A stretch of DNA of 64,000 nucleotides from an uncultured Fimbriimonadaceae bacterium (GCA_965652385.1 CBFGUV010000003.1:41411-105410), one strand, 5' to 3'; numbered from the stretch's first letter, positions 17,149-42,762 are shown. Notes: generated from the letters alone by a model not told the origin. Translations and numbers: made by a program.

Positions 17149-20100
17149 CTAAACGGTCCCTGCGTCGCCAGCCCTGCGTCGCACTTCGGTAAGAGCCTGA
17201 AGAATCTGATCCAGCTCTTCTCCTGGGAACAGGTCGTCGGCGCCTGTTGGGCTGATGTCGACGAAGGGTGACTCGTAGAGGCGGTGGCCATCGAGGACAC
17301 CATGGTCAGCCAAGTGATCAATGATGAGCTCAACAAACTCTATCTGAGTGCCGCTCAGACTCTGTTCGTTGATGGCCTGACTCAATGCACTCTGTGCCGC
17401 TTGTCGGTCAAGGCCAACCAGCAACCGCACGAATAGCCCGAGGTTCTCTTGCTTGGCCTGGATGAGGAGGTCGGGGGCATTTGACGCAGGCTCTCGTAAG
17501 AGGCTTTCCAGCTCATCCAGATCGGCCGAGGTCAGAGGCTCGTTCATTCGGAGCTTGATGACGGCTGGAGAGTCAAGGTGCTCCCTGAGAAAAGCCCTCG
17601 CTTTCTCCTTGAACCGCTCAAAGCTGGCCCCGCCGCGAAAGGCCGGCAGTTCGATCAACTCCTCTTCTCCCAGCTCATCCTCAAAGTCTGTGTAGACGGG
17701 GCTTCCCTTCGGATGCTGGACGATCGTTACCAGGCCACGAAGGCGCAACCGGAGCTGCTCCAGCATCGGTACTGTCACGTCCTGCCACCATTCCTCTGCC
17801 TGTGCGGCCTTGATCAGTTCGATGTGCTTGCTGATCATCGGGATCGATTTGTGTTCTTCGAGCACAGAACAGATGCCCTGCACCTGTTCACTTAACCGTT
17901 TGAATGAGGAGGCCGAAGTGAGAATCGCAAGCTGCAACCTCAAAACAAGCAGGTCAAACCTCTTCGACTCGACAGGCTCTCTTGGCGTCTCAGCGGGCAA
18001 CCCAGCGATGCTGGTTTGCAGGTTGAGATAATCCTCATCCGAAAGGTTAGTCCAGCGACTGGCGTCTTGGAACCTCTCAACCAAACGGCGTTTTGTTCGG
18101 ACAATGAAGTTGTCAGTGTTCATCGCACCAACTTCGGCATGCAGAAGCTCACGGATTGATGTCAGGACATCACTGTCTGTTTCAGGCTCATCCCCGTACT
18201 GAGCGCTGACTTCTTTCACGACCGTTGTCCCATCGCTCTCCAACAGGGCACTCATCACACGCAGACGAGCAACAAAGAGGTGCTTGCTGAGGGATGCGCC
18301 TACTGAGCCGTCCGTGGAAGGCAGATCTTGGCTGAAGAACTCCAGGTTGCTGAGATAGTCGAAAATGTAGAAGAATTCTTTGTCTTTGCCAGGCCCAAAA
18401 AGATCAGGGCACAAGCGGGTTCCACGGCCAACCATCTGCCAGAACTTGGTCTTTGAATGGACTTGTTTGAAGAAGACCAGATTGACAACTTCCGGTATGT
18501 CAATACCAGTGTCCAACATATCGACAGAAATGGCTATATGGGGGCTTTTAGAAGGATCGCTGAAACTGTCGATCAAACTCTGTGCGTAATCGTTCCGATA
18601 GTCGATGACGCGGGCAAAATGGCCCTTCTCCTTGGGGTAGTTGGCATCGAACCGCTCGGCAATGAACATGGCATGCTCATGGTTCTTGGCGAAGATGATC
18701 GTCTTACCCAGCCTGTCCCCGCCATCAAACTTCTGTCCGCGCTCCATCACATGCTTCAGAACCTTGTCAACGGTGCTCTTGTTGAACAGCCACTTGTTGA
18801 CCGCCTCTGGCTCGATTCGGCCGGCGGCCAAAACGTCTTCTGAGCGCTCCTTCCAGTCGGTTAGCTCGAACTGCTCCTTCTCCTCTTCCGAGAGATTGGC
18901 GTAAGTGATGCCTTCCCGTGGCAGCTTCAGTGGCACGCTGACGGAACGAGCGGGGACAAGGTAGCCATCCGCGACAGCCTCATCCAGCGAATAGGCATCG
19001 GTCGGTACCCCATCTTCCAGATCGAATAGACCGTATGTGTTTCGATCAACCTCATCCTTCGGTGTAGCGGTCAAGCCGACGAGGTAGCTGTCGAAGTAGT
19101 CAAAGATGGCCTTGTACTTGAGGAAGACCGAGCGGTGGGCTTCGTCAATGATGACAAGATCAAAGTGGCCCGGCCCGAAGCGGCGCTTCTCGCCCTTTGT
19201 TTCGTCAATCAGTCCGATCATCGTCGGATAGGTCGAGACGTAGATTCGCCCTTCCGCATTCTTTTCGGTCACCAAGTTTACCGGTGCGCTTTCGGGCAAA
19301 AACCTCTTGAACGCATTGACCGTTTGGTTCACAAGAGCCGTTCTATCGGCAAGGAACAGCACTCGGCGGACCCAGTTGGATCGCATCATCATGTCGGCCA
19401 GTGCGATGACTGTCCTTGTCTTCCCTGCTCCTGTCGCCATAACGAGAAGAGCTTTTCGTTGCCGGTCCTTCTCGAACGACTCGGCAATCCGCCGGATCGC
19501 CCTTGTCTGGTAGTGTCTTTCGACAATCTTAGAACTGATGTCTGCCGCGGCCAAGCTACGGCGTGACTTGCGGCGCTGGATCAGAAGTTGGAGTTCGTCC
19601 TTGGTGTAGAAGCCCTGGATGGCTCTTGGGGGATACATCGAATCATCCCAGATCCAGTGGTCGTATCCGTTTGTGTAGAAGATGATCGGCCGACGACCAA
19701 ACTCCTTCTCAAGGCAGCCGGCATACAGCTTGGCCTGCTGCTGTCCTTTTCGAGAGTCGTGGCGAGTGCATTTGGCTTCGATCAACGCAAGGGGCTTTCC
19801 GTCGTCACCCCACAGCACATAGTCAACATAGCCCTTCTCCTTGCTGTTGGGCATGCCGACCACTTCGTACTCGCGATTCTCATCGGTGATGTTCCAGCCC
19901 GCCTCTTTCAGCAGAAGGTCAATAAAGAGATCGCGGGTTTCGGCTTCTGAGTAGTTGTGGGTATCCGGCGTTGCTTCGTTGGTTGCTTTGATCGCCGCGA
20001 CTTCGGCACGGAGCTTCTTCAGCTCCTCATCCAGATTCTCCTTCTCAGCCAGAACGGAAAGGAGCCGTTCTCGCTCAGCATCCAGCTTTTTGTTCGCTTC

Positions 20101-20565
20101 CTGAAGCTGTTCATACGACTGCTTGGTGACCGTCTTAGTGACAGGCAGCTTGCTTGGATCAAAGGTGAGGCCGGGCTCTGGCTTCTCACCTTTAGCATAG
20201 GTGCGGGCGAGCCAGTAACAGACATGAAACAGCTCCCGAACCGCCGCCGTCGCATCCCCAACACTGATCTGTTTGTGGCTATGGACGGCGTGATTACCGA
20301 GGTTCTTGATCGCTCGGCATTTCTGGAAGACGGCTTGGCCAACAAGCTGCTGAAAGCTCGGCTCATGGATCAAGGCGTTGAGGTCGTTTCGGTATGGGAG
20401 TTGAAGCGATGAGTCAGCCCGATATGCCCAGGTGATGGCCAGTTCTAGTGTTCGACGGGCATAGAACGCAGCAGCACGAGGATCGGAATTCGCCAATGCC
20501 TCCGATCGGTGCGCAGGCTGATGGATTTCATTGAACTCTGACTTGAGATAGTCGAATTGCCCCAC
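17149..20565 (-). CDS. hsdR: Type I restriction enzyme R subunit with an N-terminal DUF4145-like extension
   Basis: PD-(D/E)xK nuclease motif (VDYVLWGDDGKPLALIEAKC), Walker A MATGAGKTRT, DEAH box IIDEAHRS, and an EcoEI_R_C-like tail (RLYESPF). GTG start with AAGGAGG 5 nt upstream. Confidence 0.95.
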   Translation of the reverse strand: MGQFDYLKSEFNEIHQPAHRSEALANSDPRAAAFYARRTLELAITWAYRADSSLQLPYRNDLNALIHEPSFQQLVGQAVFQKCRAIKNLGNHAVHSHKQISVGDATAAVRELFHVCYWLARTYAKGEKPEPGLTFDPSKLPVTKTVTKQSYEQLQEANKKLDAERERLLSVLAEKENLDEELKKLRAEVAAIKATNEATPDTHNYSEAETRDLFIDLLLKEAGWNITDENREYEVVGMPNSKEKGYVDYVLWGDDGKPLALIEAKCTRHDSRKGQQQAKLYAGCLEKEFGRRPIIFYTNGYDHWIWDDSMYPPRAIQGFYTKDELQLLIQRRKSRRSLAAADISSKIVERHYQTRAIRRIAESFEKDRQRKALLVMATGAGKTRTVIALADMMMRSNWVRRVLFLADRTALVNQTVNAFKRFLPESAPVNLVTEKNAEGRIYVSTYPTMIGLIDETKGEKRRFGPGHFDLVIIDEAHRSVFLKYKAIFDYFDSYLVGLTATPKDEVDRNTYGLFDLEDGVPTDAYSLDEAVADGYLVPARSVSVPLKLPREGITYANLSEEEKEQFELTDWKERSEDVLAAGRIEPEAVNKWLFNKSTVDKVLKHVMERGQKFDGGDRLGKTIIFAKNHEHAMFIAERFDANYPKEKGHFARVIDYRNDYAQSLIDSFSDPSKSPHIAISVDMLDTGIDIPEVVNLVFFKQVHSKTKFWQMVGRGTRLCPDLFGPGKDKEFFYIFDYLSNLEFFSQDLPSTDGSVGASLSKHLFVARLRVMSALLESDGTTVVKEVSAQYGDEPETDSDVLTSIRELLHAEVGAMNTDNFIVRTKRRLVERFQDASRWTNLSDEDYLNLQTSIAGLPAETPREPVESKRFDLLVLRLQLAILTSASSFKRLSEQVQGICSVLEEHKSIPMISKHIELIKAAQAEEWWQDVTVPMLEQLRLRLRGLVTIVQHPKGSPVYTDFEDELGEEELIELPAFRGGASFERFKEKARAFLREHLDSPAVIKLRMNEPLTSADLDELESLLREPASNAPDLLIQAKQENLGLFVRLLVGLDRQAAQSALSQAINEQSLSGTQIEFVELIIDHLADHGVLDGHRLYESPFVDISPTGADDLFPGEELDQILQALTEVRRRAGDAGTV

Positions 20566-20597: not shown

Positions 20598-21428
20598 TTA
20601 GCCCAGGTATGTCTGTTCACCGTCATACGGATTTGATACATACGCTGCGAGACCGGCCAGGGCTATAGAAACGGCAATCACGTCCTTCACCTCAAGGTTT
20701 CGAATAGCATTTGCGGGAGTACCACCGTGTCGAATCCCTGGGTAGTCAGATGCAAAGCCATACATTTTCTTTAGAGAGTCCTTGACGCCTAAGTGGGGCC
20801 ACGTGCCAACCTCGTCAGCAATTGCTCCCATCGTGTTTGCGGTGACCCCAGGGCAAGCATGTCCCAGCGCTTCCAACAGATTGACTTGCTTCTGAATACA
20901 TGTCTTTAACCTTGCTTCGCTTCGATCCGTTCGCAAGTCTCGCAGGGCCGTTTCAAACTCACCAAGAAGCTGCTGCAAGTGAGCGCTTGTGCTTGCAACT
21001 GTCCGCAAGGCACTCACGTGTTTCGCGAAGAGGCCAGGAAGAGTCGGGCAAAGATGACAGGGTTGTCGCAACTCATAGCGAAGGCTAAAGTGGACCAAGA
21101 ACTCATCAAGCAGTTGAAAATAGTAGTTTGCAACTGGATCTCCCCCTAGGTCATCCAAGACTTCATGGACGCTCTCAAGGAAGCCAACCAGGGCAAGTTC
21201 ATTTTGAATCTGACTTGGCCGGATTCTTCTAAAAGCTCTCATAGCCTGGGCCGGGTTATCCGTGATATCAGCAACTTCCTGGACGCTTTTGGGAGCTACA
21301 AGCACAGGATTCAGTGCTCGAAACAGCTCGCAGTAGATATCAGGATGGACTTCGGCAAACTCTTTCGCCAACCTCGTCCACACATACTCACGCATGTCCC
21401 TCCATACCGGCAACAACTCCCCTTTCAC
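20598..21428 (-). CDS. Hypothetical protein embedded between hsdS and hsdR
   Basis: 276-aa, mostly helical-looking ORF. Its GTG start overlaps the hsdS stop (GTGA). No Walker A and no motif I can assign. The C-terminus has YPGIRHGG. Confidence 0.7.
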   Translation of the reverse strand: MKGELLPVWRDMREYVWTRLAKEFAEVHPDIYCELFRALNPVLVAPKSVQEVADITDNPAQAMRAFRRIRPSQIQNELALVGFLESVHEVLDDLGGDPVANYYFQLLDEFLVHFSLRYELRQPCHLCPTLPGLFAKHVSALRTVASTSAHLQQLLGEFETALRDLRTDRSEARLKTCIQKQVNLLEALGHACPGVTANTMGAIADEVGTWPHLGVKDSLKKMYGFASDYPGIRHGGTPANAIRNLEVKDVIAVSIALAGLAAYVSNPYDGEQTYLG

Positions 21429-22603
21429 TTACCACCTCCTAGCAATCTATGCTGTGTAGCTCTTGAGAAATTATCAAGCATCACCATATGGGATTCGCAT
21501 ATGCGTCTTGTCACCTCCCATAAGGCAATCATTTCTTCGTATTCAATTTGAGCCGCCATTGGTGGAACGGGGATCAGGAATTCTTCGATTTCCTTTTTCG
21601 TAATCGCCTCTCTGGTGGCCCCGCTTCCAGCCACCCTCAACAATCTACGCTTGGTAGACGGCAGCAGAAGCAGGTTCTCTAAGTAAATCGGTGACAACTG
21701 TTCATTACACCTGATGATGCTCACATGCTGGTTAACTCGAGCTGGCAGGACATCAGTCGGAGCCCGACAGACTCTTGCAACGCTTGCACCCGTGATATTT
21801 AAGAGAACATCGTTTGCCTCAACCGTCACACTTCGCATCTTTAGCGCTTGTTGATCATCAATGAACGCAAGGCCCTTCCTCACAAAGGCACCATCGTGAA
21901 CATTCATGCTACGTATAAGTGCAGTTCCACTGGGCACATAGGCTGATTCTCCGCCTCTTGGTGTTGATCCACTACCAATCTTGTTTGTCAAAGATTTAAG
22001 GGGCCGATGCTCCCACTTGTCCTCTTTCGATGCAGGATCACCGAATGTCTCGATGAATAGGGAGTGAGGAACCTTCCAGAGATTATCGAGCGATTCGCAG
22101 CGTTTGGCGCGGAGTTCCTCAACCTGATCCAGGATCGCCGCAATTCGCCGTTGCTCGTTAATAGGCGGGAGCGGGAACTTCAGCGATTGAAGTTTAGGCT
22201 TGTTTAGTGTCAGCCCTTTGGCTGCGCGATCCTGCCCTTGTCTATAGTCGATCTGTTGAAGTGCCCAATACAGATATTCTGGAATGAGAGATTCTGGCTT
22301 CAGGATAGGTAGCGCAGCAATGGCTTCATTCGTGCACATCGGCTTGTGTACGATTCCAACCCTTCCTAGTGATAGCTTAAAGCTGAGCAGAACAGTACCG
22401 GGTTCGACTACCTTGCACCTGCATTTCTTCACTGCAGTATCAGTAATCTTCTCCTTGGTGGCACTCAAATACTTGCCCTGACTCATATCAGAGATCGAGA
22501 GCCACGGAACTCCGCCCCCCCAGTATTCACTCTGCTTGCGGGAAGGTGTTCGTCCGATTTCGACTCGACACACTTCCCCAAGACTCACCGAAGGCCAGCT
22601 CAC
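21425..22603 (-). CDS. hsdS: Type I restriction enzyme S (specificity) subunit
   Basis: Two target-recognition halves (LGEVCRVEIGRTPSR..VPWLSISDM and LTNKIGSGSTPRGGE..LIRSMNV) are separated by conserved helices (LPPINEQRRIAAILDQVEELR and PVPPMAAQIEYEEMI). Confidence 0.9.
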   Translation of the reverse strand: MSWPSVSLGEVCRVEIGRTPSRKQSEYWGGGVPWLSISDMSQGKYLSATKEKITDTAVKKCRCKVVEPGTVLLSFKLSLGRVGIVHKPMCTNEAIAALPILKPESLIPEYLYWALQQIDYRQGQDRAAKGLTLNKPKLQSLKFPLPPINEQRRIAAILDQVEELRAKRCESLDNLWKVPHSLFIETFGDPASKEDKWEHRPLKSLTNKIGSGSTPRGGESAYVPSGTALIRSMNVHDGAFVRKGLAFIDDQQALKMRSVTVEANDVLLNITGASVARVCRAPTDVLPARVNQHVSIIRCNEQLSPIYLENLLLLPSTKRRLLRVAGSGATREAITKKEIEEFLIPVPPMAAQIEYEEMIALWEVTRRICESHMVMLDNFSRATQHRLLGGGK

Positions 22604-23499: not shown

Positions 23500-24233
23500 A
23501 TGGATGGATCCCTAAAGAACTCGCGTGCAAGCCGCCTATGCTCAGTGATTCGACCGTATGGGTAGTCGATTTCTTCAGAATGCGCTTCACAATAATCGAG
23601 ATAGCGCGTAAGCAGTTGTTTCAGTGAGCGAAACCAGACTGGCTTCACACGATTTGACCAGTACCGCATTAGCGAGCCCGACCATGGCTTTTCCGGATAG
23701 ACTCTCGCTGACTCATGGACATATATTCCAAAAGGTCCAGTATTACGCTCACCGTGATAGGCATTTACGACCGGCGGCCCAATCAGCATTCTTGAAGCCA
23801 AGTCCATTTGGCTGGCCATAGTATTGCAGGCCGAGGCAGTGAGGTTTACACCCTCGAACACTGGTCCATAAGCTATTGAGGCACGGGCTAAGAACACTTT
23901 TCGCATATCACTACCTGCCCGGACATTTGCCAAGTGAACTCTCTCATAGATTCCTACAACCAAATCCCGAATTCTATGGATATCATCTGCTACAACAAAG
24001 AGGCCATCATTCATCGGATACAGTCCAAGGTCTTCCTGATTACTATCGATTGCAGCAGATTGAATCTTGAGGATGAAGTTGATGGCTGATGGCACTGACC
24101 TAACGAGCATCGGTCCAGTCCCCATAACGTCGATCCAGGCAACGTATCTGGGTTGAGTTTTAATGTGCCTTGTGTCAACCGTAGGAGCTGTTGGCTGTTT
24201 CGCCACAGCAATCAAAGGCGGGTCTTTCGGCAT
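23496..24233 (-). CDS. Class III nucleotidyl cyclase / GGDEF-like palm-domain protein (divergent), embedded in the R-M operon
   Basis: Ordered motifs are YVAWIDVMGTG, LYPMNDGLFVV, ARASIAYGPVFEG and MLIGPPVVNAYHGE. They parallel the cyclase motifs F.DI.GFT / IGDa.m.vF / R.GIh.GpV..G / G..VN.AaR.E. The ATG at 24233 overlaps the hsdM stop (TGATG). The track ORF extends to 24290. Confidence 0.6.
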   Translation of the reverse strand: MPKDPPLIAVAKQPTAPTVDTRHIKTQPRYVAWIDVMGTGPMLVRSVPSAINFILKIQSAAIDSNQEDLGLYPMNDGLFVVADDIHRIRDLVVGIYERVHLANVRAGSDMRKVFLARASIAYGPVFEGVNLTASACNTMASQMDLASRMLIGPPVVNAYHGERNTGPFGIYVHESARVYPEKPWSGSLMRYWSNRVKPVWFRSLKQLLTRYLDYCEAHSEEIDYPYGRITEHRRLAREFFRDPSI

Positions 24234-25759
24234 CACAGCATCGCCTCCAGTTCCTTCATTCCTTTCTGAATCTCCTCTTCCAGCTTCCACAGTTCAGCGA
24301 GAATCTCTTTGGGGTCGCGGTGTTCTATCTCTTCGTACTTGATCTCCTTGTACCGGTTGAGGCTCAGATCGTAGCCGTTCTCCGCGATCTCTGACTTCGA
24401 AACACAGAAGCTCTGGGCAGTACGCGGCCGCTCCAGCTCTTTGCCATCACGATCATCCCAGCGCATAAGGATGTCGGGGAGGTTGTTCTTCTCATGATTC
24501 TCCTCGTTGAACATGGCATCCGGACCAAGCTCACTGTCTGGCAGGAGTGGCTTTCGCTTGTCATCCAGGCTCCACCCATCGGCCCTCACGTCATAGAACC
24601 AGACATGATCCGTGCCGCCTGAGTTGGTCTTCTGGAAGAAGAGGATGGCGGTCGAGACTCCGGCATACGGCTTGAAAGCGCCACTCGGGAGACTCACAAC
24701 TGAATCAAGCTTGTGCTTCTCAACGAGCAACTCACGAAGCTCTTTGTGAGCCTTGCTGCTGCCAAAGAGAACTCCGTCCGGAACGATCACCGCCGCCCGT
24801 CCACCCGGCTTGAGGATTCGCACGAAGAGAGCCAGAAAGAGAAGCTCAGTCTTCTTGGTCTTGACGATCTTGAGCAGGTCCTTGGCGACATTCTCGTAGT
24901 CGAGCGAGCCGGCGAAGGGAGGATTGGCAAGAACGAGGGAGTAGCGATCGGCATCGGCGCTGTGCTCATCGGCCAGGGAGTCCTGATAGCTCACATCCGG
25001 ATTCTCGACACCGTGCAGAAGCATGTTCATGTTTCCGATCCGCAGCATGGTGTTGTCGAAGTCGAACCCATGAAACATGCTGTTGTGAAAGTGCTGCCGG
25101 AGCTTGTCATCACGGAGAGCTTCGGGATGGTTGGCACGAAGATACTCCCCGACAGCCACAAGGAAGCCGCACGTTCCGCAGGCTGGGTCACAGATGACAT
25201 CTTCTGGTGTCGGCTGGGTCAGCTCAACCATGAGCTCGATAATGTGACGAGGAGTTCGGAATTGTCCGTTCTGCCCCGCCGTGGCAATCTTGCTGAGCAT
25301 GTACTCGTATAGGTCGCCTTTGGTATCCCGATCTTCCAGCGGGATCTTGTCCACCATGTCCACGACCCGAGCAATGAGTGACTTCGGGATGGTGAACCGG
25401 GCATCTGCCATGTACTTGGAGAACGTGCCACCATCGCCGCCGAGCTGCTGGAGGAACGGGAAGACATGCTGGCTGATCACCTCATACATCTCTTCAGGAG
25501 CCATGTTCTTGAAGTTTTGCCAGCGCAGGTCCTGGTAGCTCCTTCCTTTGCCATCGTCGCCTTCGGGATAGAACTGGTGTTCGAGGGCTCCGCCAAACCG
25601 CTCCGCCTTGTTCTCGGCCAGCGTTTGGAGCTCATCAAGCCGCCTCAAAAAGAGGAGGTAGGTGATCTGTTCAATGACCTCAAGCGGGTTGGAAATCCCC
25701 CCTGACCAGAACGAATCCCATAGCCGATCAATCTGGTTCCGCAAATCCCCGGTGAGCAT
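24233..25759 (-). CDS. hsdM: Type I restriction enzyme M subunit (N6-adenine DNA methyltransferase)
   Basis: HsdM_N-like N-terminus, SAM motif I VICDPACGTCGF, and catalytic motif IV LANPPFAGS. Confidence 0.95.
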   Translation of the reverse strand: MLTGDLRNQIDRLWDSFWSGGISNPLEVIEQITYLLFLRRLDELQTLAENKAERFGGALEHQFYPEGDDGKGRSYQDLRWQNFKNMAPEEMYEVISQHVFPFLQQLGGDGGTFSKYMADARFTIPKSLIARVVDMVDKIPLEDRDTKGDLYEYMLSKIATAGQNGQFRTPRHIIELMVELTQPTPEDVICDPACGTCGFLVAVGEYLRANHPEALRDDKLRQHFHNSMFHGFDFDNTMLRIGNMNMLLHGVENPDVSYQDSLADEHSADADRYSLVLANPPFAGSLDYENVAKDLLKIVKTKKTELLFLALFVRILKPGGRAAVIVPDGVLFGSSKAHKELRELLVEKHKLDSVVSLPSGAFKPYAGVSTAILFFQKTNSGGTDHVWFYDVRADGWSLDDKRKPLLPDSELGPDAMFNEENHEKNNLPDILMRWDDRDGKELERPRTAQSFCVSKSEIAENGYDLSLNRYKEIKYEEIEHRDPKEILAELWKLEEEIQKGMKELEAML

Positions 25760-33925: not shown

Positions 33926-35014
33926 TTGCGGGGCTTTGCCCTGCCTGAACCTTGGGAACCCCAGGCATTGAAGAACACACTCTCGAACAAACTGAATCAA
34001 GAACTCGCGCACCTCAGCGCCGACCAGATCGAAAGCCTGATCAAGCAGGCGCAGCACATGAAGCAGCGTTCCGGCAAGAAGGGCGGCACCCTGGACGAAT
34101 GGGTGCGCCGCGCCCTGAGCCGCGCCGAACGCCAGATCCGCAAAGCCACCGACCGGCAGGAAGGCATCGTCGCGAGCGTGGTCGCCCGCGACGTTCTGCT
34201 GGAAGTGGGCGACGAACTCGTTCACACCCCGCTCGGCGGCGTACAGGTGGTGGTCGGCGACCGGGTGACGGTCGGGCTGCTGGATGGCGAGCTCACCATC
34301 CTCGAAGTCCACGAACGCCGCACCAAGCTCTCCCGCCCCGACGTGAACAACGCCAACCAGGAGCAGCTCATCGTGGCGAATGTCGATGTCGTGGTGATCG
34401 TGGTCTCCGTGGTCAGCCCGCCCCTGCACCCGCGGCTGATCGACCGCTACCTGGTCGCCATCCAGAACGGCGGAGCGGAAGCCGCGCTCTGCGTGAACAA
34501 GATCGACCTGCTGCAAGACCGATCCGAACTCGAAAAGCTGGAGCCCTACCGCCGGCTCGGCATCCCCACCTTCGAATGCTCCACGCTGCAGGGGCGGGGG
34601 ATTCAGGAAGTGCGGAGTCACTTGGCCGGGCGAGTCGTCGCCTTCGTCGGACACTCCGGAGTCGGCAAATCTTCCCTGGCGAACGCCATCACCCCGGAGC
34701 TTGGCCTCAAGACCGGCGGCATCAGCGAAGGCTGCGGCCGAGGCACCCACACCACCACGACCAGCTCCCTGCACCGCCTCGAAGACGGCACCACCCTCAT
34801 CGACACCCCCGGCATCCGCAGCTTCGGCCTATGGGATTCCGGCCAAGAAGAAATCACCGCCTCATTCCACGAGTTCGCCCAATACACCTGCCGATTCCGA
34901 AACTGCCGCCACCTCACCGAGCCCGACTGCGGAGTCATCAAAGCCGTCGAACAAGGCGAAATCTCGCAGGAACGCTACGACACCTACTGCCGGATGCTAG
35001 AGGAGGCAAATTGA
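33926..35014 (+). CDS. rsgA: Ribosome small-subunit-dependent GTPase A
   Basis: Circularly permuted GTPase order VNKIDLL then GHSGVGKSSL then DTPG, and a Zn-knuckle CRFRNCRHLTEPDCGV. The TTG start is uncertain. Confidence 0.9.
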   Translation: MRGFALPEPWEPQALKNTLSNKLNQELAHLSADQIESLIKQAQHMKQRSGKKGGTLDEWVRRALSRAERQIRKATDRQEGIVASVVARDVLLEVGDELVHTPLGGVQVVVGDRVTVGLLDGELTILEVHERRTKLSRPDVNNANQEQLIVANVDVVVIVVSVVSPPLHPRLIDRYLVAIQNGGAEAALCVNKIDLLQDRSELEKLEPYRRLGIPTFECSTLQGRGIQEVRSHLAGRVVAFVGHSGVGKSSLANAITPELGLKTGGISEGCGRGTHTTTTSSLHRLEDGTTLIDTPGIRSFGLWDSGQEEITASFHEFAQYTCRFRNCRHLTEPDCGVIKAVEQGEISQERYDTYCRMLEEAN

Positions 35015-35015
35015 T

Positions 35016-35043
35016 TTGGTGTAGACATTTGTCTGTGTATAAT
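35016..35043 (+). promoter_or_regulatory. Candidate promoter with an embedded palindromic operator upstream of the PE-imuB-dnaE2 operon
   Basis: TTGGTG (35016..35021), a 16-nt spacer, then TATAAT (35038..35043). The spacer contains the 12-bp palindrome AGACATTTGTCT (35023..35034). Confidence 0.35.
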
Positions 35044-35062
35044 AAAGCCTCGCCGTAATGGC

Positions 35063-35578
35063 ATGGAGTTGTTTATGAGCTACCAGTTGAACCTGTTTCA
35101 GCACGAACCGCACTTGCAGTTTGTCGTCAAGCATCACCAGGCGAAAACCCTGCATGACGACTTTCGCCTGGAAGTATTCGGGGCCTTGGCCTCATGGGTG
35201 CTCCCCACACACCCAAGCCTAGACCCCACCGACAGCCTGCGGGCATGGCGCACGCCCGATCACAAGATCAAGTGGATGCTTTCCGAGCGCTGCATCCCTG
35301 AAGGGCAGATCGGCACAGGCCCCATGCTCGTTTGGGATAAGGGGCTGTATCGTCCCATTGCTCCCGGCGATGAGACAGATGATGTGAAGGCTGCGGTTGG
35401 CATTTTGCGCGGAGAGCTTGACGTTGAACTCTCGGGCGAACGCTTGTCAGGACGATTCCGTCTGCGTCGTGCGGGCCGGGATTGGAAGCTGAGCAAGCTG
35501 CCGGATGAGCATGTACGAATCGGACACTGGTGGGATGACCGATCCATCTTGACTGGGCGCACGCTGAGCCAAATCTGA
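35063..35578 (+). CDS. Stand-alone LigD-type 3'-phosphoesterase (PE / LigD_N) domain protein
   Basis: FVVKHHQAKTLHDDFRLEVFGALASWVLP aligns to the LigD PE signature FV.Q.H.A..LHYDFRLE..GVL.SWAVP. The later DHK..W and GELDVELSGERLSGRFRL segments match the PE beta-barrel. Confidence 0.72.
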   Translation: MELFMSYQLNLFQHEPHLQFVVKHHQAKTLHDDFRLEVFGALASWVLPTHPSLDPTDSLRAWRTPDHKIKWMLSERCIPEGQIGTGPMLVWDKGLYRPIAPGDETDDVKAAVGILRGELDVELSGERLSGRFRLRRAGRDWKLSKLPDEHVRIGHWWDDRSILTGRTLSQI

Positions 35579-35582
35579 AATC

Positions 35583-36725
35583 GTGAGCTGGATTCTATGG
35601 CTTGCTTGGCGGGGGTTCTATTGCTCTCGCGATGTCTCCACTCCTCAAATTGTTGTCCGGGACAAGAAAGTGCTCGACCTGAATCCTGCGGCCTCAGACC
35701 ACGGAATTCAGGTTGGCATGACTCAATCTGAAGCCCGGAACATCTTGCCAGGCTGTCTCATCCAGCCTTGGCACCCGGATCAGTTTAAAGATGCCCAGGA
35801 GAATTGGCTGAAACTCTGCCTGCCGTATACCGGCCGCATCCAGCCCCTCGACGATCATATCGCCGCACTCGATTTAGGCCAGCACCCGGTTCCATACGAT
35901 ATCGCAGTTGCCCTCATTGATGAGTTGATGGCCGCTGTCAAACTTCCATTGAGATATGGAGCTGGCCCAACCAAATGGGTGTCGCGGTTGGCATCAGAAC
36001 ATTTCGAGTTGGTGCGCTCTGTGGCTGATCCGCCTGCCTTCGTTGCTCCTTACCCCATCGAAGAGCTGGCGCCTGTCTCGGCAGCGTCAAAATCCCGCCT
36101 CAAAGATTTCGGTTACCACACCATTGGTACAGCCGCTCATATCCCGTTCTCAGTCCTGCAGCAGCAGTTTCAGGCGGAGGCTCTAACCGTCCGCAATGCC
36201 TGCCTTGGAGGGGGGCTTGATCCCGTTCAGCCTCTCTATCCGCGAGGAGTGCTGCACGAGTCTATTCGCTTTGAGGGGGAGGTTGAAAACGCCGAGGTTA
36301 TCAATGATGCCTTGAGGAGGCTCGCGAGTTTGTTGGGAGAAAGACTTTCTGGCCAGCAAGCGGGTCAGATTGATCTCGTACTGGATTTTGAAGAATCGCG
36401 TTCTTTTACAATCAATCGTCGGCTTCCCCGTCCAATCGCGGCTACTTACGGCATCTACTCGATTCTGCGCATCCTTGTCGAACCTGCGTTGAAGCAATCA
36501 ACCGCCCCTATCGCCGGAATTCAGTGCCGCTTGGCCGATTTAACTCCGGCTGGATATCGACAGAAACAGCTCTTCACTACCGAATCAAAGATCGCATCAG
36601 AATTTGCCACTCGAAGTGTGCGAATGGCCTTGGGGAATGACTCTGTTGTGCTGGGGAGGCACATCAAGCAATCAAGGCGAGCCCTTGTCCTGCAGGAGTG
36701 GAAGAATGCCACCGGATGGCGCTGA
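35583..36725 (+). CDS. imuB: ImuB-like Y-family polymerase homologue (mutasome accessory protein)
   Basis: N-terminus ILWLAWRGF...NPAASDHGIQVGMTQSEARNILP is Y-family/ImuB-like, without an obvious catalytic acidic triad. It starts 4 nt after the PE gene and sits directly upstream of dnaE2. Confidence 0.75.
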   Translation: MSWILWLAWRGFYCSRDVSTPQIVVRDKKVLDLNPAASDHGIQVGMTQSEARNILPGCLIQPWHPDQFKDAQENWLKLCLPYTGRIQPLDDHIAALDLGQHPVPYDIAVALIDELMAAVKLPLRYGAGPTKWVSRLASEHFELVRSVADPPAFVAPYPIEELAPVSAASKSRLKDFGYHTIGTAAHIPFSVLQQQFQAEALTVRNACLGGGLDPVQPLYPRGVLHESIRFEGEVENAEVINDALRRLASLLGERLSGQQAGQIDLVLDFEESRSFTINRRLPRPIAATYGIYSILRILVEPALKQSTAPIAGIQCRLADLTPAGYRQKQLFTTESKIASEFATRSVRMALGNDSVVLGRHIKQSRRALVLQEWKNATGWR

Positions 36726-39700
36726 GCTTCTTGCTCATTGGCGCGAAGCAGGCGAGTGGTGGTGTGGCGCGCCTGAGCGAGAAGTCCACCGCTGGCTGGA
36801 TAAAAAGGGGGTTCTTCGCGAGGAGATTCAGCCCTATCACCGAAAATCTGCAGGCGGCTCCAGCTCAGTGCGAGTGCGCCGGGTCAGAGACGAAAAAGTG
36901 AGCCTCGCATGCGGGATGGCAGTCCCAGACAACTATGGCAATGCGAAAGCCCAGGCCAAGAAAGGCGTGCTCCTCCACGCCATGAGCGGATGCGCCTTTG
37001 GCCGCAGCACGATGATCGCGGCTGAAATCCCGGCGATGGCGGCCGAGCAGGGCTACCACTCTGCACTCCTCGCAGATCCCTTCGCCTTGACTGGCGCCTA
37101 CGAGTTTCAGAAAACAGCCGGAATCGTCGGAATCAAGCCTCTCATCGGAGCAACGATAGAGATGGAAGAAGGCGGAGAGCTCGTGCTGATTGCCAAAGAT
37201 GCCGAGGGATACCGCACTCTTTCCCGCCTTATTACCGAATGTCATCTGTCAGAGCCGCGAGGTTATCCGCTATGCAATCCTGCTCGCCTCGCAAAGCACA
37301 CCAAAGGGTTGATCTGCCTGACTGGCGGAAACAACGGGCCCCTGGATCGCATGCTGATGCGTCGAGAGTGGCATGCGGCTGAAGATCTGCTGAAGAATCT
37401 CATCCGCATTTATAATTCAAGAGTCTATGTGCAGGTGGAGAGATCCTTTCTTCCGTGGAGCATCTCGGTAGAAAAGAGACTCCTTGAGCTCTGTGAACGG
37501 CACAAGGTCACTCCGGTGGCTGGTGGTCCAGTGCTGCATCAGCACCCAGAGCATTTCCCTGCCCAAGACGTTCTGACCTGCATCCATACGCTGTGTCTCA
37601 TTGAGGAGATTGATGGCCGCAAACCCCGACGTGATTCCACTCAAGCAAACCCACATCTCCCTCCTCGCAGGGAACTTAATGCAGAACGCCACCTCCGATC
37701 TGCCCAAAGCCTGAGAAAGATCTACGCGGATCAGTCACAGCTGATAGAAAATGCCGAGCAGATAGCAGAGCAGTGCGAAGACTGGGTGCTTCCTGGCCGC
37801 ATCAATCCTCCACAATTCTGCAAAGACGAAGGCTCTCTGCTGACTCGGCTAGTGGAGGCGGGCGCACATCTGCGCTACCCAAGACAATCCCCAAAACTGC
37901 GCGCCAGACTCAAAATAGAACTTGATCGAATCATTCGATTGGGCTACTCAAGGCACTTTCTGATTGCCTGGGATATGTGTAATTGGGCTCAAGAACAAGG
38001 CATCCTGCATAGCGGACGAGGTTCCGTTGTTGATTCGCGGGTCGCTTATTGTCTTGGTTTAAGCCGTATTGATGCTGACAAATTCAAGCTTCATTTCGAC
38101 CGCTTTCTGCCCGCAGATGGGAGCAAGCGCCCTGACATAGATATTGACTTTGAGGCGGCAAGGCGGGAGGACGTCAGACAGTATCTTGTCCGCAAATACG
38201 GGGACGAACATGTGGCGACCGTAGCCGCAATTGGAACATACGGATCTCGAGGCATAGTCCGCGAAGCTGGGAAAGTATTGGGAATACCCATAGAGAGCAT
38301 CAGCTATCTAACCAAAAGGCTGCATGGGAGCGTGACACCAGAGCGCTTAGAAACGGCCCTTGACGCGCGCCCCGAGCTGCGCGACAGTCAGATTCCCCGA
38401 GAAAAGTTTCACTGGATTTTCAAGCTGTCAGAACAGTTGATGGACCTTCCCCGCAGCCTGAGGGCTCATTCATCTGGCGTGATCGTCTCTGAGGTCCCGA
38501 TTGCAGATGTTGTTCCGGTCGTCCACTCAGGGGTGGAGGGAGTAAAGATCATCCAGTGGGATAAGCGAAGCGCCAAACACTGTTTTGATAAGTTTGATGT
38601 GCTCTGTCTGCGGGGCAACGATGTTCTGGGTGGCGCGGTCCGCAATGCCGATCACCAATTCAATGTCACTGACCTCCCTCTAGATGATCCTGAGACTTAC
38701 CGAGCCATGCGGGCCGGCGAATTGATTGGAATACCCCAATCGGCCTCTCCCGCCATGCGGCAGGCTCATATCCGCATCGGCACGAGTGACCTGAAAGAAG
38801 CGGGCATTGTCCAAGCCGGCATTCGCCCTGGAGTGGGGGGAGCCGTCAAGCTGAATGAATACATCGCTCGGCGACAAGGAAAGCGATTCAACTTGGTGCA
38901 TCCGAAGATGGAGCGAATCCTAGGGCCGACCCTGGGAATTGTAGTGTTTCAAGAACAGATTGACCAACTCCTTCAAACATTTGGTGGATACAGCGGAGAT
39001 GACGCAGAGAGGATTCGAGAAGGAATTCACAAGGACAGGCATGATTTCGCCAGCAAGATCAAAGATGACGTGGTATCCAAGATCATTGAGAAGGGGTTCA
39101 ATCGCCTGGTTGCTGAAGAGGTTTATACGCTCGTCTCGGGATTCAAAGGCTATGGATTTGCCGAAGGACACGCGCTCTCTTTTGCCGAAGTTTCTATCCG
39201 CTCAATATGGTGTCAGCAGAACTACCCGGCACCCTATTTTGCCGCTCTCCTTGATGCCCAACCCGCAGGCTACTATGGCCCGGCAACGATTGCAAACGAA
39301 GCTCGCGGTCGTGGAGTGAAGGTTCTGCCTCCCTGCGTGAATAGAAGCGGTCTGAAATATACGGTGGAGGACGTCAAGTCTGATGAAGACCCGATCCTCA
39401 CCTTCCCCCAGGGCGGAATCCGCGTATCGCTTGAACAGATCAGCGGCATCAGCAAAGAGATTGCCCGCAGAATCATAGAATGCCAACCTTTTGGTTCCTT
39501 TTTTGATTTCGTAGCCCGTGTGCGCCCGGCTCGTGATGAATTGGAGCAGATCATAAACTGTGGAGCTTGTGATGACATGACATCCAATCGTCGGTCTCTG
39601 CTCTGGGCCATGGAAAGCGCGATGAGCTACGCCGATACAGTGAAGAGCAGGCCAGACACCCTGCCCCTTACATACCCCGAACCCCAACTGCCGACTGTTG

Positions 39701-40161
39701 CTGACTTCACGGAGACCGAGAAGGCAATCGCTGAGCGGCGAATTCTCGGACTTGATGTAAAGCGTCATCTTATGGGCTTTGAAAGAGACCGCATCTCAGC
39801 GCGAGGCGGTTTGACTTCAGCGGAAGCCTCACGCTACCTTGGAAGCGAGAAAATCTTCGTCGTTGGCAATCCCATCCGCCTTCGCTTCCCTCCCACTCAG
39901 AGCGGTCGACGCGTCATGTTCTTCGACTTGGAGGATGAGACTGGCCTGCTCAATGTCACCTGCTTTGATGATGTCTATCAGCGCGATGGGCACAAGGTGA
40001 TCTGCAATCCCTACATCACGGTTTGGGGGCAAACGCAGAATCGCGACGGACACATTGCCTTCATGGCCAAAACGATACACCCCTATACGCCGGAGCATGT
40101 GAAGCAGGGAGAGATCGTGGATCCCCTTCCACTGGTGACTGCCGATTTCCTAGTCAGCTGA
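36706..40161 (+). CDS. dnaE2: Error-prone DNA polymerase III alpha-type subunit
   Basis: PHP-like start LLHAMSGCAFGRSTM, polymerase core (DIDIDF, RAHSSGVIVS, FEQIDQLL-type segments), and a C-terminal OB fold. I chose the start at M35 of the track ORF (MPPDGAELL), which overlaps imuB by 20 nt. Confidence 0.92.
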   Translation: MPPDGAELLAHWREAGEWWCGAPEREVHRWLDKKGVLREEIQPYHRKSAGGSSSVRVRRVRDEKVSLACGMAVPDNYGNAKAQAKKGVLLHAMSGCAFGRSTMIAAEIPAMAAEQGYHSALLADPFALTGAYEFQKTAGIVGIKPLIGATIEMEEGGELVLIAKDAEGYRTLSRLITECHLSEPRGYPLCNPARLAKHTKGLICLTGGNNGPLDRMLMRREWHAAEDLLKNLIRIYNSRVYVQVERSFLPWSISVEKRLLELCERHKVTPVAGGPVLHQHPEHFPAQDVLTCIHTLCLIEEIDGRKPRRDSTQANPHLPPRRELNAERHLRSAQSLRKIYADQSQLIENAEQIAEQCEDWVLPGRINPPQFCKDEGSLLTRLVEAGAHLRYPRQSPKLRARLKIELDRIIRLGYSRHFLIAWDMCNWAQEQGILHSGRGSVVDSRVAYCLGLSRIDADKFKLHFDRFLPADGSKRPDIDIDFEAARREDVRQYLVRKYGDEHVATVAAIGTYGSRGIVREAGKVLGIPIESISYLTKRLHGSVTPERLETALDARPELRDSQIPREKFHWIFKLSEQLMDLPRSLRAHSSGVIVSEVPIADVVPVVHSGVEGVKIIQWDKRSAKHCFDKFDVLCLRGNDVLGGAVRNADHQFNVTDLPLDDPETYRAMRAGELIGIPQSASPAMRQAHIRIGTSDLKEAGIVQAGIRPGVGGAVKLNEYIARRQGKRFNLVHPKMERILGPTLGIVVFQEQIDQLLQTFGGYSGDDAERIREGIHKDRHDFASKIKDDVVSKIIEKGFNRLVAEEVYTLVSGFKGYGFAEGHALSFAEVSIRSIWCQQNYPAPYFAALLDAQPAGYYGPATIANEARGRGVKVLPPCVNRSGLKYTVEDVKSDEDPILTFPQGGIRVSLEQISGISKEIARRIIECQPFGSFFDFVARVRPARDELEQIINCGACDDMTSNRRSLLWAMESAMSYADTVKSRPDTLPLTYPEPQLPTVADFTETEKAIAERRILGLDVKRHLMGFERDRISARGGLTSAEASRYLGSEKIFVVGNPIRLRFPPTQSGRRVMFFDLEDETGLLNVTCFDDVYQRDGHKVICNPYITVWGQTQNRDGHIAFMAKTIHPYTPEHVKQGEIVDPLPLVTADFLVS

Positions 40162-40810: not shown

Positions 40811-41608
40811 TTACCGAAACTCGGCCGATGTCACTTCCGCCCGGAAGAACTCACCCTCCGACTCGAACCGATCCGAGCCAAAGAACCAACCCACCCTCAC
40901 GTGGCTGGGCATTGTATAGCCGCCGAATGCCCTCTCCTCTTCGACCACACCACCAAAAGGTTGGTCCCTATATGACTCTCCGCCAAAGTCGCTCCATCTC
41001 TCCAGCGAAACAGACTCCAACCGCCCACTCTCTGCGATCCCGAACTCGACGTCCATCCCTTTTACATGTGCGCGATTCTCGTTCCAAGGGGATTCGCAAA
41101 GCATCGAGGGCAGCCAGATCGACTCTGCCGCCAGCCGCCCCTTCGCCGACCGGGTGACATCTCCTCCAGTGGCCGACATCACCGGAATCAGCCCCAGCAG
41201 CTTCCACTTCATCTCTCCCGCTCCATCCAGCAGGCGGTCATAGCCGCTGATCGGCAGTCCGCCCATCCGGGCGGTGGCGCGCCAGATCATTTCGTGATTG
41301 ATCGTGATCACCTGCTCCGCGCGGAAAGGAGCCCAATTCTTCAGCTTGATCTCCCCCTCCATCCGCAGCCGCACCGCGCGCGCCAGCACAGTGCCTTCCG
41401 CAATCGCGTGGCTCAGATACCGCTGCGCATCTGCGGACAGCGAAGCAATCCGATCTGCCGTAAAAATTTCGCGCCCGGGCTCCACCGATTCCCACAGGCG
41501 ATCCAGGTCACCCATGCCTGCTAGTATAGGGTCCCCGGGCAGCAGACCCGCGCCCTCCACATGCTCGGGCTGGATCGCATCGAAACCGGATGCAACCTGG
41601 ACACCCAC
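40811..41608 (-). CDS. Hypothetical protein
   Basis: 265-aa ORF with ordinary composition. No motif assigned. Confidence 0.55.
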   Translation of the reverse strand: MGVQVASGFDAIQPEHVEGAGLLPGDPILAGMGDLDRLWESVEPGREIFTADRIASLSADAQRYLSHAIAEGTVLARAVRLRMEGEIKLKNWAPFRAEQVITINHEMIWRATARMGGLPISGYDRLLDGAGEMKWKLLGLIPVMSATGGDVTRSAKGRLAAESIWLPSMLCESPWNENRAHVKGMDVEFGIAESGRLESVSLERWSDFGGESYRDQPFGGVVEEERAFGGYTMPSHVRVGWFFGSDRFESEGEFFRAEVTSAEFR

Positions 41609-41637: not shown

Positions 41638-42762
41638 CTAGTAGCGGAAGATTGCCGCCGCCGGTGCTTCGGAGAGCATCATCTCTGGATCAAGGGTGCA
41701 GACTTCGCCGCTCTTGAGCAGGGTCGCGATGGCCGCTTCATTGACCTTCTCGCCATCCTTCCCCGTCGGCGGGGTGCCATCCATCGAAATCAGCAGGGTT
41801 TCGACCCGCCCCGCCTCGGCGGCATCATTGATCTCGCTGATGATCGAGGAGGCGACGCCTTTCGCATTCAGTTCGCGGAAGCGCTCTAGCGTCTCCTTTT
41901 CTCGCTTGTCGAACTTCGGCGCGATCTTCTCCCAGGCTTCCCGGTGAAGCTCCTCTATCGGCCGATGCTCCTGGTTGCCGTGGATCTCGGCTTCGATCAG
42001 CTCTGCGGACTGGTTGGCTTCTCGATAGATCGGCAGAAGATAGTCCACGCCTGCCAAAACCACCGGACCCGGCACGTTGTTGAAGACCGGATGCAGGCCC
42101 TTGTCCACCATATCGAAGTAGCGCTTCAGATTCACCTTGTGCTCCTCCATGCCCGTCTTGTCGCCCGTGCCGTGGAACATGGCCGCCCGACCCGCGCCGC
42201 TGGGATTGTTGCCGGCTCTGGTGTGCCATTGCAGCTGCTTCTGGTTGTCGTCGGCAAAAAGGGCCTCGGCCATGCTGGTGGGCACACCCTGCAGCCGGAC
42301 TTCATACAGGCTGAAGCGGTTGGCATCATACAGCTTCACTTCGTCTTCGCTGAGCGCGAGAATGTAGAAGCGTCCGTTGCGGCTGAGCAGAGGCATCAGC
42401 GGAAGAATGTGAAACCGCTTGTTGACAGACTGCATCTCGGGGGCATCGATGGGCAGCCGATAGATCTTGGTCATGCCCGGCGCGATGAAGAGCGCGAGCC
42501 CCTCTTCCTGATTCGTCCAGAACTCCTGATCTTCACGGAGCTTGTCGGCTTCTGCCAGGAGTTCGTCGATCTCTCGCTGGTCCCGGCCCTGCTGCGAAAG
42601 CTCTTCTCGCACGGACTTCAGCAGGTTCTTCAGCCGGATGGGATCCTGAGCGGTCTCGCTGCCCTTGCGGTGGGTGGGCATATAGATTGAAATGGCCGGC
42701 TCGTGCGCTTGGCCGACCAGCTCTTCCACTTCCTTTCGAGTTGGCACATCGGGATGACGCAT
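41638..42762 (-). CDS. Bacterial eRF1-like (baeRF family) domain protein; assignment from memory of family features
   Basis: The N-terminus ISIYMPTHRKGSETAQDPIRLKNLL and central MFHGTGD loop resemble what I recall of baeRF-type proteins. 374 aa. Confidence 0.5.
   Translation of the reverse strand: MRHPDVPTRKEVEELVGQAHEPAISIYMPTHRKGSETAQDPIRLKNLLKSVREELSQQGRDQREIDELLAEADKLREDQEFWTNQEEGLALFIAPGMTKIYRLPIDAPEMQSVNKRFHILPLMPLLSRNGRFYILALSEDEVKLYDANRFSLYEVRLQGVPTSMAEALFADDNQKQLQWHTRAGNNPSGAGRAAMFHGTGDKTGMEEHKVNLKRYFDMVDKGLHPVFNNVPGPVVLAGVDYLLPIYREANQSAELIEAEIHGNQEHRPIEELHREAWEKIAPKFDKREKETLERFRELNAKGVASSIISEINDAAEAGRVETLLISMDGTPPTGKDGEKVNEAAIATLLKSGEVCTLDPEMMLSEAPAAAIFRY

Follow-up and report, generated by a model that had tools for sequence, protein, structure and literature searches.

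ImuA-less mutasomes, in which an active or inactive Y-family protein carrying a RecA-NT motif is paired with DnaE2 and RecA itself has been proposed as the stand-in for ImuA, are the closest described systems to the gene cassette reported here (PMC6511836, Timinskas & Venclovas 2019; PMC12926913, NAR 2026). The types set out in PMC12926913 are DnaE2B-iPolY-RecA and DnaE2X-iPolY-ImuB-C-RecA. A second point of comparison is LigD, whose 3'-phosphoesterase (PE) domain trims ends that are then extended by the POL domain (PMC3082917). The cassette under study occupies positions 35016-40161 of a 64,000-nucleotide (nt) stretch of DNA, hereafter the window, from an uncultured Fimbriimonadaceae bacterium of rhizosphere soil, phylum Armatimonadota (GCA_965652385.1 CBFGUV010000003.1:41411-105410), and it joins a stand-alone PE to an iPolY-DnaE2 pair behind a promoter that is overlapped by an inverted repeat. 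ImuA-less iPolY-DnaE2 systems are already known; the PE partner appears to be new. No LigD or 3'-phosphoesterase partner is mentioned in PMC6511836, in PMC12926913 or in the supplementary text consulted for the latter, and no paper linking PF13298 or the LigD PE with imuB, dnaE2 or a Y-family protein was found in the open-access literature.

In our reading, to which we assign a probability of roughly 0.6, the window encodes an operator-controlled and probably damage-inducible PE-iPolY-DnaE2 operon, that is, an ImuA-less mutasome with a PE accessory that would heal 3' ends. Its parts are as follows (window positions).

35016-35043, plus strand: promoter, with a -35-like TTGGTG at 35016-35021, a 16-nt spacer and a perfect -10 TATAAT at 35038-35043
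35020-35039: operator-like inverted repeat GTGTAGACATTTGTCTGTGT, overlapping the promoter
35023-35034: core palindrome AGACATTTGTCT (AGACA-TT-TGTCT), in the promoter spacer
35063-35578, plus strand: PE gene (ATG 35063 to TGA 35578), 171 amino acids (aa), containing FVVKHHQAKTLHDDFRLE..SWVLP
35583-36725, plus strand: iPolY gene (GTG 35583), 380 aa, PF00817 and PF11799, named imuB in the first-pass annotation
36561-36575, plus strand: beta-clamp-binding-type motif QKQLF, iPolY residues 327-331
36594-36656, plus strand: RecA-NT-like motif, iPolY residues 338-358, consensus ALxQ[IV]RxVFGexS[IV]
36675-36722, plus strand: C-terminal tail of iPolY, RRxxVLQEWKNATGWR, its last codons overlapping the DnaE2 start
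36706-40161, plus strand: DnaE2 gene (ATG 36706), 1151 aa
36706-36975: N-terminal extension of DnaE2

Like the ImuA-less iPolY-DnaE2 systems, the cassette has no imuA in the operon, and its inactive Y-family protein, which has clamp and RecA-NT-like motifs and no ImuB-C, is encoded by a gene that overlaps dnaE2 from the upstream side; unlike them, the window family adds the PE, as first gene or fused, together with a DnaE2 extension of ~90 aa and an EWKNATGW tail on iPolY. With the canonical imuA-imuB-dnaE2 cassettes of Caulobacter, Pseudomonas and Mycobacterium it shares a three-gene, operator-controlled plan in which a small accessory gene comes first and a dead Y-family scaffold and DnaE2 come last, whereas here the first gene encodes a phosphoesterase, the scaffold lacks ImuB-C and the operator is unlike known LexA boxes. 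The pairing of a 3'-end healer with a repair polymerase resembles the logic of LigD (PE plus POL), but in the window the partner polymerase is of the C family, with a Y-family scaffold, and not an archaeo-eukaryotic primase (AEP) polymerase with ligase and Ku; no Ku or ligase gene was seen in the PE/iPolY-DnaE2 cassette loci read.

The promoter begins 2 nt past the stop codon (35012-35014) of rsgA (RsgA_GTPase, 33926-35014), which lies upstream of the cassette, and both its hexamers and the palindrome in its spacer stand exactly where the first-pass annotation had placed them. Its -35 hexamer agrees with the consensus at only 3/6 bases, which accounts for its absence from an automated promoter scan; the same layout, the operator followed by GTATAAT, is present in the relatives L052, L054 and L056. 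The three genes are tightly packed: a gap of 4 nt separates the PE stop codon from the GTG of iPolY, and the iPolY and DnaE2 genes overlap by 20 nt. The start of DnaE2 at ATG 36706 is backed by an N-terminus, MPPxG..WREAGEWW, that is kept in relatives, and the start and length of iPolY are upheld by homologues of 380-386 aa. For the PE gene, the true start may be the second ATG at 35075, which has GGAG 6 nt upstream and equals a 167-aa gene call (P0001), rather than the ATG at 35063. The shared nucleotides 36706-36725 encode the iPolY end KNATGWR and the DnaE2 start MPPDGAE in two frames, and part of the apparent conservation of each protein in this segment may therefore reflect the overlap.

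The protein encoded 4 nt upstream of iPolY is homologous to PE rather than a divergent form of ImuA, in agreement with the first-pass annotation. It passed the family threshold of Pfam LigD_N (PF13298; 2.5e-26, 92.4 bits against a cut-off of 31.1), matched TIGR02777 LigD_PE_dom at 3e-29 with 101.7 bits, under the equivalog cut-off of 144, and matched the PDB entries 5dmp (8.8e-24) and 3n9b (2.3e-21), as well as 3p43 and 3p4h. No RecA or ImuA family match was obtained for this open reading frame (ORF) in Pfam and NCBIfam profile searches, and no RecA-like ORF was found in the window, so that the absence of a RecA/SulA-like ImuA from the cassette, also proposed in the first pass, holds as well.

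The known enzymes PaePE, CkoPE and MbaPE bind Mn2+ via two His and an Asp and phosphate via an Arg and a His, and these residues are essential (PMC3082917). The window PE shares with them and with the PE domain 5dmp_A (PaePE, 3n9b; CkoPE, 3p4h; MbaPE, 3p43) the PF13298 family, the metal His-His-Asp and the phosphate Arg and His, and has in common with 5dmp a C-terminal S-[IV]-L-[TS]-G-R motif. Six active-site side chains are listed for PaePE, namely His42, His48, Asp50, Arg52, His84 and Tyr88 (PMC3082917), and five of the six are identical in the window PE, as His25, His31, Asp33, Arg35 and His67 in the numbering of the 171-aa form. At the position of Tyr88, a further contributor in the known enzymes, the window PE has Trp71, whereas most relatives have Tyr; a Tyr-to-Ala mutant of the known enzymes retains part of its activity (PMC3082917). 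Of the 22 PEs tabulated, which are cassette-associated or of the Lys40 type, 20 keep every one of the residues equivalent to His42, His48, Asp50, Arg52 and His84. The window PE differs from the LigD and archaeal PEs at positions on the substrate side, where it carries Gln40 to Lys, Lys66 to Thr, Arg76 to Leu and Glu82 to Pro, and it lacks their N-peptide; Gln40, Lys66, Gly67, Arg76 and Glu82 are invariant among the LigD-fused PEs sampled. From this residue pattern we conclude that selection acts on the catalytic centre while the surface on the substrate side is altered, a combination that would be expected if the PE now works inside a different complex. The window PE is predicted on the same grounds to have a 3'-end-healing activity.

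The second protein matches the Y-family domains IMS and IMS_C. In the alignment of its homologues, the N-terminal DxD position shows no conserved acidic residues, and where active Y-family enzymes such as DinB have the Asp-Glu pair there is an invariant ALDL. The alignment thus marks iPolY as a family member that is catalytically inactive. Gln327 and Leu330 are invariant (pattern QxxL[FM]), a pattern predicted to be a clamp-binding motif. As a profile, the RecA-NT-like segment aligned with residues 10-28 of E. coli RecA in the matching register, at an E-value of 4.3 that is not significant for a motif this short; a RecA-NT motif is known for Y-family proteins (PMC6511836). The C-terminal tail was found in nearly all of 38 family members. 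Only ~22 residues follow the RecA-NT-like motif, leaving no room for ImuB-C (~100 aa), and the proteobacterial ImuB proteins used for comparison, of 487-555 aa, carry a domain of ~100 aa at their C-terminal end. The protein named imuB in the first pass, with its 380 aa and no ImuB-C, is not a canonical ImuB; its inactive core and its clamp and RecA-NT-like motifs, with no ImuB-C, place iPolY with the ImuA-less iPolY-DnaE2 systems.

The third gene is assigned, on the strength of its matches, to a DnaE2-type polymerase. Among NCBIfam models it fits NF004225, error-prone DNA polymerase, best (571 bits, under the subfamily cut-off of 939), and its best annotated tblastn matches are genes named "error-prone DNA polymerase". 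The Pfam domains PHP, DNA_pol3_alpha, finger, HHH_6 and OB make up the full DnaE architecture; read by eye, the PHP motif is degenerate and the polymerase motif PDIDIDF is intact. The protein begins with a conserved extension of ~90 aa (MPPxGxExLxxWREAGEWWxxEPxRE..D.KGIRRE ... RDEKVxxACG), which is also found in L002, L006-L018, L049, L052, L054 and L056. This extension had no Pfam family even at E = 10, no tblastn match against plasmids and no significant hmmsearch match against three ImuB-type proteins. An hhalign comparison with the ImuB-C of six proteobacterial ImuBs placed REAGEWW on RIxGEWW in the expected register, with a probability of 24% and P = 8e-4. If this similarity is true, ImuB-C would have shifted onto DnaE2 in this family, which we offer as a lead only.

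The PE linkage is not confined to this genome and recurs both as operons and as gene fusions. Three other lineages contain PE-iPolY-DnaE2 operons: L002, with the gene order PE, iPolY, DnaE2 as in the window; L052/L053, where the PE gene overlaps iPolY by 4 nt and DnaE2 follows; and L054, where the PE stop codon lies 3 nt upstream of iPolY and a second PE gene is convergent to DnaE2. That second L054 gene (11744-12280, minus strand) keeps Gln40, has His84 changed to Arg and stands behind its own weaker site, TAGTATACAAACTTATACTT (14.8 bits). The promoter-PE-iPolY-DnaE2 block (35016-40161) is inverted as a unit relative to L002 8001-13101, within a conserved flank of HAD, DUF6544/6920, baeRF, glyoxalase, BSP, N_methyl and GSDH genes.

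An exhaustive representative search with the PE protein (sources JGI, Logan, ENA and GEM) brought up PE-iPolY fusions of 554-569 aa (P0012, P0015, P0018, P0165, P0166 and P0169, plus the partial P0010), each built from the PE domain, a linker of ~4-14 residues and a complete iPolY with its tail. The DNA of P0166 was read and its translation gives the fusion; both in L049 and on the P0012 contig, the gene for the fusion has an overlapping DnaE2 gene downstream of it. The PE of P0165 is of the canonical LigD type (SWAVPKGPS, Arg76), and the other fusions carry a PE of the Lys40-type clade; since two different PE lineages are involved, the fusion arose at least twice. When the iPolY domains were arranged in a rough neighbour-joining tree, all PE-linked and fused forms fell in one large clade with unlinked forms interspersed. 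The PE gene stands alone in L001, a metagenome-assembled genome (MAG), and iPolY-DnaE2 occurs without PE in the Fimbriimonadaceae MAG loci L003/L006. The PE is thus found in three states, unlinked behind the same operator, as the first gene of the operon, and fused to the N-terminus of iPolY, and it is a recurrent, optional accessory module of the iPolY-DnaE2 mutasome family. That the same enzyme is fused to the scaffold in relatives makes it look like a real part of the mutagenesis machine. As a separate observation, full-length ligD, accompanied by an SRAP peptidase gene, lies within ~2 kb of imuA-imuB-dnaE2 on two proteobacterial plasmids, Cupriavidus necator pENH92 and Rhizobium sp. pHM2 (L059 8424-9934 and L060 1-558), which had been chosen solely as sources of ImuB sequences; a gene neighbourhood of LigD, which contains a PE, with the mutasome may be more general.

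The palindrome that the first-pass annotation pointed out belongs to a conserved, promoter-overlapping element that is also common to other DNA-repair genes. Allowing at most one mismatch, the core palindrome occurred twice in the window, with 1.2 occurrences expected, which alone is not beyond chance; its significance comes solely from its conservation in orthologous promoters. The family operator is a 20-bp inverted repeat of about TAGTAGAC-N4-GTCTACTA, and every locus with readable upstream sequence has TAGTAGACA followed by a variable second half ahead of its first cassette gene. The best sites are AAGTAGATGTATGTCTACTA in L007, TAGTAGACATATGTCTTGTA in L054 and TAGTAGAAATTTGTCTGCTA in L002. 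A matrix was built from 17 sites and 317 kb were scanned on both strands. It recovered sites outside the training set at the expected positions, with scores of 28.4 bits in L001, 23.7 in L054, 18.9 in L052, 18.5 in L049/L065, 17.6 in L050 and 12.6 in L056, and all matches above 15 bits lay at promoters of cassettes or PE genes except two other sites in L007. At L007 4628-4647, a AAGTAGATGTATGTCTACTA site, a nearly perfect palindrome (25.4 bits), stands on the opposite strand, 66 nt upstream of a gene for a 403-aa AAA-type ATPase and 1.3 kb from the cassette. Within the window, the palindrome is exact at the promoter alone; the matches at 15008, 52902, 62065 and 19094, which resemble TAGTAGAC or were returned by the matrix, are all intragenic and were set aside as chance occurrences. 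The register of the element relative to the -10 hexamer varies: in the window, as in L052, L054 and L056, it lies within the spacer; in L001, L004 and L009 it supplies the first bases of TATAAT; and in L008 and L011-L018 it stands after the -10 and ahead of the start codon, or covers the ATG. This variation is in keeping with an operator rather than a promoter element.

The exact form TAGTAGACANATATATACTA, sought in metagenome contigs, was found at 28 loci. The adjacent gene is iPolY at three of these, a stand-alone PE with the site in opposite orientation at one (L048), and a radical-SAM, spore-photoproduct-lyase-like gene of the "DNA repair photolyase" type at three (L025, L044 and L042), the start codon of the L042 gene being inside the operator. 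Beside the site in L021, L022, L024, L027, L033 and L045 lies the gene for a conserved small protein (MTPDEQVKDVLRFFADHTRNRPLVYEEIAKTANRWDDL...; 79-84 aa) that has no Pfam family (in L045, for instance, at 4650-4904 on the minus strand); a TATAAT formed at the operator edge precedes its ATG by 7 nt, and the protein could either belong to the regulon or regulate it. Two further loci (L032 and L036) encode a protein of ~140 aa with a weak sigma-70 region-4/LuxR-like C-terminal helix-turn-helix (HTH), a candidate for a non-LexA regulator, and the remaining loci hold singletons and AT-rich, probably chance matches. Many operator-adjacent genes start ~7 nt past the edge TATAAT, which suggests leaderless transcripts. 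The unlinked PE genes of L001 and L048 and the fusion gene of L049 stand behind the same operator, and this sharing places the PE in the same regulon as iPolY-DnaE2 even when it is unlinked. The genes found next to the operator are consistent with a DNA-damage regulon. In L065, a genome with a PE-iPolY fusion, the ATG of uvrB is directly preceded by TAGTAACATGTAGACAG (10257-10285), a partial site below 11 bits, and uvrB was not counted as a regulon member on account of this score.

Under the operon reading, DNA damage would release the repressor from the operator, and one transcript would supply the three proteins together. The hub would be iPolY, by way of its clamp motif, its tail and its RecA-NT-like motif, the last of which is predicted to recruit RecA itself, and DnaE2 would be the active polymerase, working without a proofreader. 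iPolY would keep the PE at the primer terminus, by a covalent link in some lineages and presumably by non-covalent contacts in the window, and the PE would use its Mn2+/phosphate centre to remove 3'-phosphate-type blocks or 3'-terminal ribonucleotides; the healed 3'-OH could then be extended by DnaE2. A PE acting ahead of a mutasome would parallel the logic of LigD and would also fit the "ribo patch" idea of repair in non-growing cells (PMC4176160). The stronger proposal, that the PE is a physical subunit of an undescribed mutasome, PE-iPolY-DnaE2(-RecA-beta clamp), whose coupling was selected at least twice and whose operator is a new one, belonging to an Armatimonadota damage regulon, seems to us evenly balanced between true and false.

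Several observations weigh against the operon reading, and some of them lend themselves to other explanations. The 13 full-length cassettes from a scan of one genome per species, all of them from Armatimonadota, have no PE within 6 kb (0/13), and there is no PE upstream of iPolY in L004, L050 and L056, so that the PE is dispensable for the core machine. These cassettes have no ImuA nearby either, and we rejected the first-pass proposal that the PE takes the place of ImuA: the window cassette belongs to the ImuA-less iPolY-DnaE2 class, its sister cassettes have neither protein, and the PE is thus an add-on and not a substitute. The scan relied on C-tail peptide patterns and saw only the EWK[ND]ATGW subclade; such patterns miss most of the fusion and linked subclades, and the frequencies derived from them are biased. 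RNA runs were sought for the stretch and none were listed, the stretch being present in two rhizosphere DNA metagenomes only, which bears on co-transcription and induction. The window operator scores 9.6 bits, weak against the family matrix, because its outer bases differ; the inner TAGAC-N4-GTCT is intact. The frequent separation of PE and cassette would be accounted for if the PE were merely co-regulated, a general healer of 3'-blocked breaks in the damage regulon whose place in the operon is just a handy way of sharing the operator, and not a subunit. PE genes stand alone behind their own operator in L001 and L048, most sampled cassettes lack an adjacent PE, and archaeal stand-alone PEs act alone (PMC3082917). 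Co-regulation alone sits poorly with at least six PE-iPolY fusion clusters that have very short linkers and at least two origins, with the placement of cassette-associated PEs in their own clade with altered substrate-side residues, and with the inversion of the three genes as one block, and we regard it as unlikely. The remaining points against the operon reading concern catalysis. Gln40 (to Lys), Lys66, Gly67, Arg76 and Glu82 are lost clade-wide, and the KRDF-type N-peptide is absent from the clade, in which ~13-17 residues precede the first core strand; Arg14, Asp15 and Glu21 of the PaePE N-peptide are required for vigorous 3'-phosphomonoesterase activity, although CkoPE, a core-only protein that also lacks the N-peptide, is still a member of the PE family (PMC3082917). 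Core residues are themselves replaced in P0012 (His48 to Pro) and in the second PE of L054 (His84), and an AlphaFold2 model of the window PE, built on a four-sequence alignment, had a mean predicted local distance difference test (pLDDT) score of 49.7, too poor for use. Such losses would suit a non-catalytic structural module, a degenerate fold reused as an adaptor for binding DNA ends or proteins, much as mutasomes often reuse inactivated enzymes, ImuA being derived from RecA and ImuB from a polymerase (PMC12926913). The residue pattern of the PEs is hard to account for unless they catalyse, or at the minimum bind metal and phosphate, and an adaptor role therefore strikes us as quite improbable.

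The identity of the repressor is a separate matter. The element is an inverted repeat over the core promoter that is conserved across orthologous promoters, as is typical of LexA operators, and LexA is most likely its repressor by analogy, being favoured because DnaE2 cassettes elsewhere are LexA-regulated (PMC6511836). A repressor other than LexA, for example a lineage-specific HTH protein governing a damage or stress regulon that is not the classical RecA/LexA SOS response, is nevertheless a fair possibility, somewhat less likely than not. The operator is not known to fit any LexA box (CTGT-N8-ACAG, GAAC-N4-GTTC or GTTC-N7-GTTC), as the first-pass annotation had remarked, and no LexA-like ORF lies near any operator site. 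A phmmer search of the six-frame ORFs of the window and of L001-L048, with E. coli LexA and RecA as queries, gave no LexA- or RecA-like ORF, and no paper on LexA in Armatimonadota was found in the open-access literature. The ~140-aa HTH and ~80-aa proteins stand repeatedly behind perfect sites, as autoregulated repressors often do, and the uvrB promoter of L065 carries a partial site only. Set against this, apart from the LexA control of DnaE2 cassettes, is the architecture of the element, since a 4-bp-spaced inverted repeat placed over the promoter in varying register is LexA-like and resembles GAAC-N4-GTTC. A non-LexA repressor would concern the regulator alone and is compatible with the PE-iPolY-DnaE2 operon as we read it.

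Beyond the cassette, the DnaE2 gene and a HAD gene are convergent in the window with a 12-nt overlap, and the genes at 40811-41608 (DUF6920/DUF6544) and 41638-42762 (bacterial eRF1-like baeRF) adjoin the cassette and are syntenic in L002. Farther upstream, the segment 11035-25759 has the look of an integrated mobile island: genes for a tyrosine integrase and an ArdC-N-like protein are accompanied by those for an AAA_25 ATPase, a C-terminal UvrD fragment and a type I restriction-modification system, which is complete (hsdR 17149-20565, hsdS 21425-22603 and hsdM 24233-25759).

DnaE2 mutasomes drive damage-induced mutagenesis, including that underlying drug resistance in mycobacteria. A PE carried on the scaffold would offer a testable answer to the question of how a non-proofreading polymerase meets blocked primer ends, in that healing would precede mutagenic extension, and it would widen the biology of the LigD PE superfamily past end-joining. 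The shared operator provides a first handle on the regulation of the DNA-damage response in Armatimonadota, its matrix being suited to scans of complete genomes; should LexA bind the element, it would be the LexA box of that phylum.

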